Source of the DNA: a virus
Lineage: Duplodnaviria; Caudoviricetes
Direction: 5' to 3' (one strand)
DNA: 64,000 bases
IMG/VR virus record: IMGVR_UViG_3300006922_000005
Each line of letters opens with the position of its first letter. Positions within the stretch are counted from its first letter, which is position 1. Position numbers and translations under genes: made by a program. Shown one piece after another: positions 25,062 to 26,409 of the stretch. The notes below the pieces were generated by a model. That model searched no databases. It worked only from the letters and a program-made list of their open reading frames with translations, and was not told the origin of the DNA.

Positions 25062-25090
25062 AGTATAGCACCAAAGCACTATACTGTCAA
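25062..25090 (-). promoter_or_regulatory. sigma70-type promoter for tRNA-Glu
   Basis: TTGACA-N17-TATACT. Confidence 0.75.
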
Positions 25091-25671: not shown

Positions 25672-25745
25672 TGGAGTGGACGACAGGAATCGAACCTGTA
25701 TACATGGATTTGCAATCCACTGCGTAACCATTCCGCCACGCCCAC
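25672..25745 (-). tRNA. tRNA-Cys(GCA)
   Basis: GTGGA-TTGCAAA-TCCAT anticodon arm, U73, CCA. Confidence 0.93.
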
Positions 25746-25749
25746 AAAT

Positions 25750-25823
25750 TGGCATAGGTGGAGGGAATCGAACCCCCATTAACTGGTTTGGAATCAGTTG
25801 TGTTACCATTACACCACACCCAT
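25750..25823 (-). tRNA. tRNA-Trp(CCA)
   Basis: ACTGA-TTCCAAA-CCAGT anticodon arm, G73, CCA. Confidence 0.9.
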
Positions 25824-25860
25824 AAAAAAACCCCCGTAAGCATTATAACTCCGGGGGTCT
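25824..25860 (-). terminator. Intrinsic terminator (attenuator 3:4 hairpin) upstream of tRNA-Trp/Cys
   Basis: CCCCCG...CGGGGG stem followed by a 7-T run on the minus strand. Confidence 0.8.
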
Positions 25861-25883
25861 AAAATTCATTGCTGAACAACTGC

Positions 25884-25949
25884 CTACAAGACACTCCCGG
25901 GTGGTTCACAACCACACCATTCATAATTATTTGTATACTTCGTATTCAT
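25884..25949 (-). promoter_or_regulatory. Putative attenuator leader peptide MNTKYTNNYEWCGCEPPGSVL
   Basis: AAGGA SD; TGG-TGT-GGT-TGT codons; the 3' part is complementary to the terminator 5' arm. Confidence 0.7.
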
Positions 25950-25976
25950 TGTTCGCTTTCCTTATTAACTTTTTAC

Positions 25977-26005
25977 AGTATATTATCTTTTTGTCGTATT
26001 GTCAA
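25977..26005 (-). promoter_or_regulatory. sigma70 promoter of the leader-tRNA-Trp-tRNA-Cys unit
   Basis: TTGACA-N17-TATACT. Confidence 0.8.
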
Positions 26006-26243
26006 CCACAAATGCTTTAATTTTGTTAAAATTATTTGTAGTTTGTTCTTTACCTTCTTGCCAACTATTTTTTTGGTATTCTACTATATCTGCCCATTCG
26101 CTGATTACCCAGTTATTTATTTTTTCAACAATAACAGGTTTCTTCTTAGGTGTTAATGTTTCATCAGCACCTGCTGTTGTAACAAGAAGTACAAATAATA
26201 TTGTTATACTTGCTACGATTGTTAATAGTGTCTTAGTTGTCAT
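25983..26243 (-). CDS. Exported/membrane-anchored hypothetical protein
   Basis: Signal-like N-terminus; W..IVEYQKNSWQEGKEQ. Confidence 0.6.
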   Translation of the reverse strand: MTTKTLLTIVASITILFVLLVTTAGADETLTPKKKPVIVEKINNWVISEWADIVEYQKNSWQEGKEQTTNNFNKIKAFVVDNTTKR

Positions 26244-26340: not shown

Positions 26341-26409
26341 TTTTTGTTTCATATATAACTTAACTATATATGGTAAAACCGTTTTTGTCAACCAGATTTT
26401 TAATCCAAT

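Follow-up and report, generated by a model that had tools for sequence, protein, structure and literature searches.

Upstream of the tRNA-Trp and tRNA-Cys genes of IMG/VR record IMGVR_UViG_3300006922_000005, a fragment of a marine T4-like (pelagimyophage-like) phage with eight tRNA/tmRNA genes, lies a short leader that we consider, with a probability of about 0.78, to be a ribosome-mediated, multivalent (trp/thr-type) leader-peptide transcription attenuator. Judged from its sequence and that of its relatives, it would control a phage tRNA operon, and its output would be the cognate tRNAs themselves. The stretch analyzed, called the window throughout, is 64,000 nucleotides (nt) long, and the leader and its two tRNA genes occupy positions 26005 to 25672 of the minus strand. 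The parts of this leader are conserved across a family of related phages, its RNA has alternative pairings, and its sensor codons covary with the tRNA genes that follow. It is most likely that the phage makes these Trp-led tRNAs only when ribosomes decode the sensor codons slowly. The features of the window copy, all on the minus strand, are these:

26005-25977, minus: sigma-70-type promoter TTGACA-N17-TATACT, 11 of 12 consensus positions matched
25963-25959, minus: Shine-Dalgarno (SD) sequence AAGGA, spaced 9 nt from the ATG
25956-25947, minus: 5' strand of helix P1, GCGAACAAUG, including the start codon; partner in the fold 25882-25871
25949-25884, minus: leader open reading frame (ORF), 21 codons plus TAG, MNTKYTNNYEWCGCEPPGSVL, as read from the ORF
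25919-25908, minus: sensor codons TGG TGT GGT TGT (W C G C), region 1, decoded by both downstream tRNAs
25919-25898, minus: local hairpin UGG.GUGGUU/AACCAC.CCG of the minimum-free-energy fold, in which the sensor codons pair with the beginning of region 2
25900-25889, minus: region 2, CCGGGAGUGUCU, the last ORF codons and 5' strand of the antiterminator, from constrained folding
25882-25871, minus: 3' strand of helix P1 in the fold, CAGUUGUUCAGC, just past the stop codon
25860-25824, minus: intrinsic terminator, a hairpin at 25860-25828 with core CCCCCG/CGGGGG, then U7 at 25830-25824
25860-25848, 25847-25842 and 25841-25828, minus: terminator 5' arm (region 3), loop and 3' arm (region 4), from folding
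25823-25750, minus: tRNA-Trp(CCA), Rfam tRNA model, 62 bits, with no spacer after the U run
25745-25672, minus: tRNA-Cys(GCA), Rfam tRNA model, 64 bits

The leader in the window and its family

An original prediction, made from the letters of the window, had proposed the promoter, the AAGGA motif with a 21-codon leader bearing TGG-TGT-GGT-TGT, a GC-rich terminator with a 7-U tail, and tRNA-Trp(CCA) and tRNA-Cys(GCA) directly behind it. All of these are present at the coordinates given; folding recovers the terminator, and the Rfam tRNA model finds both genes. A simple terminator scan missed the hairpin solely owing to its 8-nt loop limit. In the long ORFs of the window, W makes up 1.3% and C 1.1% of residues (together 2.5%), and a random 20-codon peptide would have at least three W/C, with both kinds present, within four consecutive codons at P ~5e-4. 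The leader also folds better than shuffled sequences do (z -3.3). A TATAAT within the terminator loop was considered as a hidden -10 promoter element and rejected: its best -35 matches at 3/6 positions, an extended -10 is lacking, and relatives do not share it.

Relatives of the leader were gathered by using as an anchor the phosphoesterase gene just downstream of the tRNAs (25611-25087), with which 80 IMG/VR loci of 58-99% amino-acid (aa) identity were fetched; further loci were added by a motif scan with the most conserved stretch of the leader. At the anchored loci, wherever a cluster headed by tRNA-Trp stands upstream of the phosphoesterase gene, the leader module always precedes it. In all, IMG/VR yielded 134 Trp-led elements, 75 of them distinct, and a terminator and leader ORF lie directly upstream in 72 of these 75. 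The other three comprise L093 and a second tRNA-Trp inside another cluster (L076), both without a terminator call, and one element too short to score. Our main comparison set is the 62 distinct leaders with sufficient flank, taken from IMG/VR contigs of related marine T4-like phages.

In all 62, tRNA-Trp is the first gene of the cluster behind the leader. A promoter of the form TTGACW-N16-18-TAnnnT lies 24-37 nt ahead of the start codon in 55, and an SD-like motif is found in 60. The start codon is ATG in 46 leaders and GTG in 16, the ORF is always 18-22 codons long with every length difference in frame, and the two alternative frames are interrupted by stops in 39/62 and 50/62 leaders. A Trp codon is invariant, at codon 10-13. 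As in an attenuator, a short ORF with a ribosome-binding site follows closely on the promoter, and its reading frame has been kept open in evolution. Loss of the ORF and its Trp and Cys codons with retention of the terminator, which would have spoken against the original prediction, was not seen: the relatives keep the ORF, the ribosome-binding site, the frame and the Trp codon.

The window copy belongs to this family as a divergent member, as follows from a profile match together with identical synteny. A profile hidden Markov model built from 52 relatives, with the window's own clade excluded, matches 25966-25821 over its full length as the sole significant match in the window (E 0.003). Over the locus, the window shares 98-99% identity with the nearest IMG/VR record, which is too close for covariation and carries an A-to-G change that extends the antiterminator pairing. 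A scan with a degenerate W-C-G-C-E-P-P leader returned the known near-identical clade and three new contigs; one of these, L177, is a further member in which tRNA-Trp and tRNA-Arg adjoin, and another, L176, is a GC-rich chance match that we set aside. When the window region and the leader of a relative were compared by BLASTN with 50,697 deposited phage genomes, in search of the leader in a cultured phage, only tRNA-level matches were found. A motif scan of genome contigs gave 8 matches, approximately the chance expectation. Three scan matches were rejected as unrelated, in Acholeplasma (L182) and Pyrinomonadaceae (L185) on tRNA content only and in Rhodospirillales (L184) on tRNA content and sequence.

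The terminator is specific to clusters of this kind. A GC hairpin and U run lie within 110 nt upstream of 63 of the 64 distinct Trp-led clusters, compared with 2 of 25 Thr-led ones, and no terminator was found upstream of clusters led by Asn, Ser, Gly, Arg, Glu or Leu. In 29 of the 62 leaders the U run adjoins tRNA-Trp directly, and in 13 more it lies at most 11 nt away, which leaves no room for a separate promoter and makes the tRNAs dependent on read-through. A terminator thus stands between the leader ORF and the tRNAs with no promoter after it, again the arrangement of an attenuator. Within the window, only the Trp-led unit would be gated: tRNA-Arg(GCG) and tRNA-Glu(UUC) have their own TTGACA-N17-TATAnT promoters (26363-26391 and 25062-25090), which end ~20 nt before the tRNA and come without leader or terminator.

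Sensor codons and the tRNAs that follow them

Whether the control codons change with the identity of the downstream tRNAs had been set beforehand as a test, and in the relatives they do. The clusters behind the leader include Trp alone, Trp-Cys, Trp-Pro-Ser-Cys, Trp-Pro-Tyr-Cys, Trp-Gln-Cys, Trp-Arg-Cys, Trp-Cys-Ile and ~25 other combinations. The family is therefore a natural experiment that allows changes of codons and of tRNAs to be tallied over ~50 leader/cluster combinations. Examples of clusters and of the leader residues around W are:

Trp-Pro-Tyr-Cys: Y-L-Y-W-C-P-P
Trp-Pro-Cys-Ser(UGA)-Ile(UAU): S-I(AUA)-I(AUA)-C-W-P-S(UCA)
Trp-Arg(ACG)-Cys: C-W-R(CGC)-R(CGC)
Trp-Pro-Cys-Glu-Arg(ACG): R(CGU)-W-C-P-E
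Trp-Tyr: T-Y-W
Trp-Arg, without tRNA-Cys: no Cys codon in the leader

Among 55 distinct leader/cluster pairs, 116 non-Trp codons within three codons on either side of W are cognate to tRNAs of the leader's own cluster, where permutation of clusters predicts 76 (z 9.2, p<5e-5). Permutation restricted to leader families still gives z 6-8, and permutation of all clusters gives z 7-9 overall. The enrichment is restricted to positions -4 to +3 around W. Counted tRNA by tRNA, as leaders that have a cognate codon within four codons on either side of W when the tRNA is in the cluster or absent from it, the figures are:

Ser(UGA): 10/12 with the tRNA, 5/43 without
Ile(UAU): 6/6 with, 7/49 without
Gln: 7/7 with, 11/48 without
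Cys: 31/31 with, 16/24 without
Arg(ACG): 3/4 with, 7/51 without

Shared ancestry was taken into account with a tree of the leader backbone in which the sensor zone was masked. Among phylogenetically independent pairs in which one cluster has a tRNA that the other lacks, the change in the cognate codon agreed with that in the tRNA in 18 cases and ran against it in 2 (p 4e-4). General codon-usage drift, considered as a cause of the match between codons and tRNAs, is ruled out by a neighboring gene of 174 codons. At the same loci, no tracking of the cluster is seen in the codons of this adjacent gene (ratio 1.03, p 0.19); the tracking ratio of the leader there is 1.43 (z 6.4), and cluster-cognate codons make up 34% of the sensor zone versus 5% of the gene. 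As attenuation would have it, the regulatory codons are cognate to the controlled product and enriched in the leader.

Competing RNA structures and the proposed switch

The full transcript folds into P1 and the terminator in all 62 leaders folded, two of which differ solely in their 5' flank. When the RNA is cut before the terminator 3' arm, region 2 pairs with a segment that includes region 3, through 7-17 pairs in 62/62 leaders; this pairing encloses a small AU hairpin and has a mean of about -15 kcal/mol. In the window, region 2 (CCGGGAGUGUCU) pairs with 25860-25851 through 9 pairs in the absence of the terminator 3' arm, which is the antiterminator between leader end and terminator 5' arm that had been proposed. 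The GUGGU/ACCAC hairpin described over the control codons also appears in the predicted minimum-free-energy fold, and the terminator/antiterminator layout as a whole was reproduced by folding in every family member. Across the folds, the sensor codons pair locally with a G run.

Region 2 consists of the last four codons of the ORF, and a ribosome modelled at the stop codon masks it. In the folds, then, the antiterminator is mutually exclusive with the terminator and can be masked by a ribosome at the stop codon, as required of an attenuator. The region reads GGGGUAUGUCUU in the main family and is nearly invariant in relatives, synonymous sites of the last three codons included. Since the invariance extends to synonymous sites, it argues for a constraint at the RNA level.

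RNAalifold on a MAFFT alignment recovered the terminator alone, as ORF indels throw the alignment out of register, and P1 and the antiterminator were tested instead via constrained folds, partner-swap tests and explicit tables. P1 strands pair better with their native than with swapped partners (-12.5 versus -10.1 kcal/mol, p 2e-4), as do the terminator arms (p 2e-4), in which one pair has gone from C-G to U-A via a U-G intermediate. Strict covariation in P1 ties the two ends of the ORF together. An AUG start goes with C[G/A]UG past the stop codon in 37 of 39 leaders, the other two having AUGU and UGUG, and a GUG start goes with C[G/A]CG in 16/16. Likewise, a UGA stop is matched by C in the 5' strand in 39/39 and a UAA stop by U in 16/16. 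The GUG/UAA state of P1 is found on two different leader backbones.

From these pairings a model may be drawn. An early-type promoter would give a leader RNA of ~150 nt, on which a ribosome would load at AAGGA/ATG and translate the 21-codon ORF, whose mid-ORF UGG, UGU and UGU codons would be read by the downstream tRNAs. When decoding is fast, the ribosome would arrive at the stop codon and cover region 2, so that the GC hairpin and U7 could form and transcription would end before tRNA-Trp. When decoding is slow, with charged tRNA-Trp or tRNA-Cys scarce, the ribosome would wait on the sensor codons and leave region 2 free. Free region 2 and the terminator 5' arm would then make the antiterminator, and RNA polymerase would read into tRNA-Trp and tRNA-Cys. 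With no ribosome on the RNA, the start-codon region would pair with the stop-codon region as P1; because P1 occupies part of region 2, termination would be the default without translation. The net effect would be a negative feedback in which the phage's tRNA supply is set by decoding demand.

That a stalled ribosome alters termination is inferred, as are the sign and magnitude of the response and its natural trigger. It is tempting to speculate that W is held constant near codon 12 because a second ribosome could then occupy the start codon and block P1. Cleavage of host tRNAs by anticodon nucleases, which the original prediction offered as an example of a trigger, is pure speculation.

The layout closely recalls the enterobacterial trpL attenuator (RF00513). 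Both have a promoter-proximal short ORF with Trp codons and a GC hairpin followed by a U run, and in both the sensor codons form a local, 1:2-like pairing with the segment that follows. In both, too, region 2, here the end of the ORF, competes with the terminator 3' arm for pairing with region 3, and an untranslated leader is expected to terminate by default. They differ in output, which is tRNA genes for the phage element and biosynthetic enzymes for trpL, and in that the phage region 2 lies inside the ORF and an extra, covarying start-codon/stop-codon helix is present. The leader of one relative (L018) matches RF00513 over its full length below threshold (25.1 bits against a gathering threshold of 41), and matches the Phe, His and Thr leader models of Rfam in the same full-length, sub-threshold way. 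The window has no RF00513 match at E up to 10; its only match to an Rfam leader model is to the His leader, at 13.5 bits against a threshold of 49 (E 5). The phage element is analogous to these Rfam leader families, not a member of them.

Codons for several amino acids in one leader are also found in the attenuators of thr (Thr/Ile) and ilvGMEDA (Ile/Val/Leu), and a multivalent leader of this kind would let a shortage of any one amino acid relieve termination. Unlike in those operons, the codon mix of the phage leader reflects a set of tRNA genes that varies between phages and changes as tRNAs come and go, and its codons are mostly present once or twice each. In the pheST (pheM leader) attenuator and in T-box riboswitches, the availability of charged tRNA governs components of the decoding apparatus. 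The phage element would share this kind of control; the known systems act on synthetase or amino-acid genes, whereas here the controlled genes would encode tRNAs. T-boxes further differ in that they bind the tRNA themselves and need no ribosome. The mechanism proposed for the phage element belongs to a known kind, and the controlled product is new.

Several points weigh against this model. Many clusters that contain tRNA-Trp only still have Cys and Pro codons in their leader. Pro codons are nearly universal, and they may serve to pair with the G run. Tracking is absent for the Arg(GCG), Gly(UCC), Lys and Met tRNAs. At the structural level, the native-versus-swapped advantage of the antiterminator is slight (p 0.016), because both of its strands are nearly invariant, so that its support comes from conservation and complementarity. 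The terminator always wins at equilibrium in silico, and the switch must therefore be kinetic. Sensor codons just 3' of W would place a ribosome over part of region 2, and a ribosome stalled at W leaves the P1 5' strand uncovered. The window's own clade is nearly invariant, and the case for the window copy therefore rests on its homology to the larger family (E 0.003) and on synteny. Marine metatranscriptome contigs do cover the locus, at low depth and with DNA carry-over possible, and cannot show 3' ends; one of 152 nt, for which carry-over is likewise possible, spans the leader, the terminator and the start of tRNA-Trp.

The surroundings of the leader vary among relatives. In the window, an 86-aa ORF with a hydrophobic N-terminus (25983-26243, minus strand) lies between tRNA-Arg and the leader, and its stop codon falls within the spacer of the leader promoter (25977-26005), which overlaps it. 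All 14 close relatives have an insert of 89-93 nt between tRNA-Trp and tRNA-Cys (L001:2252-2344; L004-L017), with no Rfam match and no significant fold. The nearest IMG/VR record carries it at 89 nt; the window has a 4-nt spacer (25746-25749) and no insert. In at least 17 relatives, a structured element of 77-95 nt stands between the leader terminator and tRNA-Trp (L060:2680-2772, L057:2469-2548); it forms a three-way junction with a 10-bp closing stem (fold z -2.4 to -3.5), has no Rfam family, and may be a small mobile or processing element. A related piece of 59 nt lies 5' of other tRNAs (L019:1357-1414).

A second tRNA-Trp allele, 84-85 nt by ARAGORN, stands behind the same leader in some relatives (L011:2689-2773, L015, L017, L022), from which it appears that the leader was kept while the tRNA-Trp gene was exchanged. 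In one clade (L018:903-974), the stretch from the leader terminator to tRNA-Trp holds a further mini-ORF, MTDSEYWRWMKSQVE, which has W-R-W and no hairpin of its own. Between tRNA genes of another relative (L060:2035-2243), there is a near-threshold match to the manA RNA motif (RF01745; 49.6 bits versus 55.2, E 3e-10).

Alternative explanations and implications

The alternative that survives best, although we consider it unlikely, is that the mini-ORF encodes a conserved micropeptide, that the hairpin is a constitutive leaky terminator or a 3' stabilizer after RNase P cleavage, and that the tRNAs are made by unregulated read-through. Conservation of the ORF with a good ribosome-binding site would fit this, as would a terminator that always forms at equilibrium, and leader peptides that act in trans are known, peTrpL being an example (PMC7298713). 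A peptide selected for its function should not, however, rewrite the residues flanking W each time the tRNA cluster changes. The C-terminal codons do not vary, synonymous sites included; this speaks for RNA-level rather than protein-level constraint. A micropeptide would also leave both helix P1 and the conserved complementarity of regions 2 and 3 without a role.

Less probable again is an arrest of the nascent peptide, as in TnaC or SecM, which might sense free tryptophan or need elongation factor P (EF-P) at W-P-P, with read-through reporting something other than tRNA supply. The Trp is indeed invariant at codon 10-13, and W-P-P or W-C-P-P is frequent; the critical Trp of TnaC is at position 12. 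Against an arrest peptide stand the residues around W, which are the most variable part of the leader and follow the tRNA content, and the window peptide, which has W-C-G-C-E-P-P and a different C-terminus. The 3' end of the ORF is, moreover, conserved at the level of nucleotides.

Direct sensing of tRNA without translation, as by a T-box, seems to us slightly more doubtful still. In that case the sensor codons would serve as specifier triplets to which uncharged tRNAs bind by their anticodons, so stabilizing an antiterminator, and triplets cognate to the downstream tRNAs do lie in a structured leader ahead of a terminator. An Rfam search at E up to 10 gave no T-box match, the model's conserved Stem I / T-box sequence not being recognized, and the leader is far shorter than a T-box. 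Conservation of the ribosome-binding site, the start codon, the in-frame stop and indels of 3 nt also argues against it, and several triplets follow several tRNAs together, unlike a single specifier.

Chance juxtaposition in the window, where the hairpin would simply end the upstream 86-aa gene (it could also end transcripts from the upstream tRNA-Arg promoter and that ORF) and tRNAs happen to follow, is untenable given the comparative data: the arrangement is kept in 62 distinct relatives with differing upstream genes, and the W/C cluster alone has P ~5e-4 and the fold z -3.3.

Beyond this one leader, we lean toward a broader reading, held less firmly than the attenuator itself, in which phages tune the expression of their own tRNA genes to demand: a short translated sensor would gauge how quickly the codons of the downstream tRNAs are decoded and would be rewritten, one codon after another, with each gain or loss of a tRNA gene. 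Full-text literature searching, work on pelagimyophages included, found no description of attenuation of tRNA genes. If our reading is correct, classical attenuation, which acts on amino-acid and synthetase genes, would extend to tRNA genes. The leader would also be a compact natural part of ~150 nt that reports the decoding speed of chosen codons, and it may offer a ready-made, reprogrammable sensor of codon-specific decoding.

The roles of phage tRNA genes are debated, and codon-usage matching, compensation for the decay of host tRNAs and evasion of tRNA-cleaving defenses have all been put forward. With the ribosome as sensor, these phages would supply tRNAs on demand, which would make the purpose of phage tRNAs directly testable. 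On the broader reading, tRNA homeostasis in large phages would follow a general principle for which no description is known so far.

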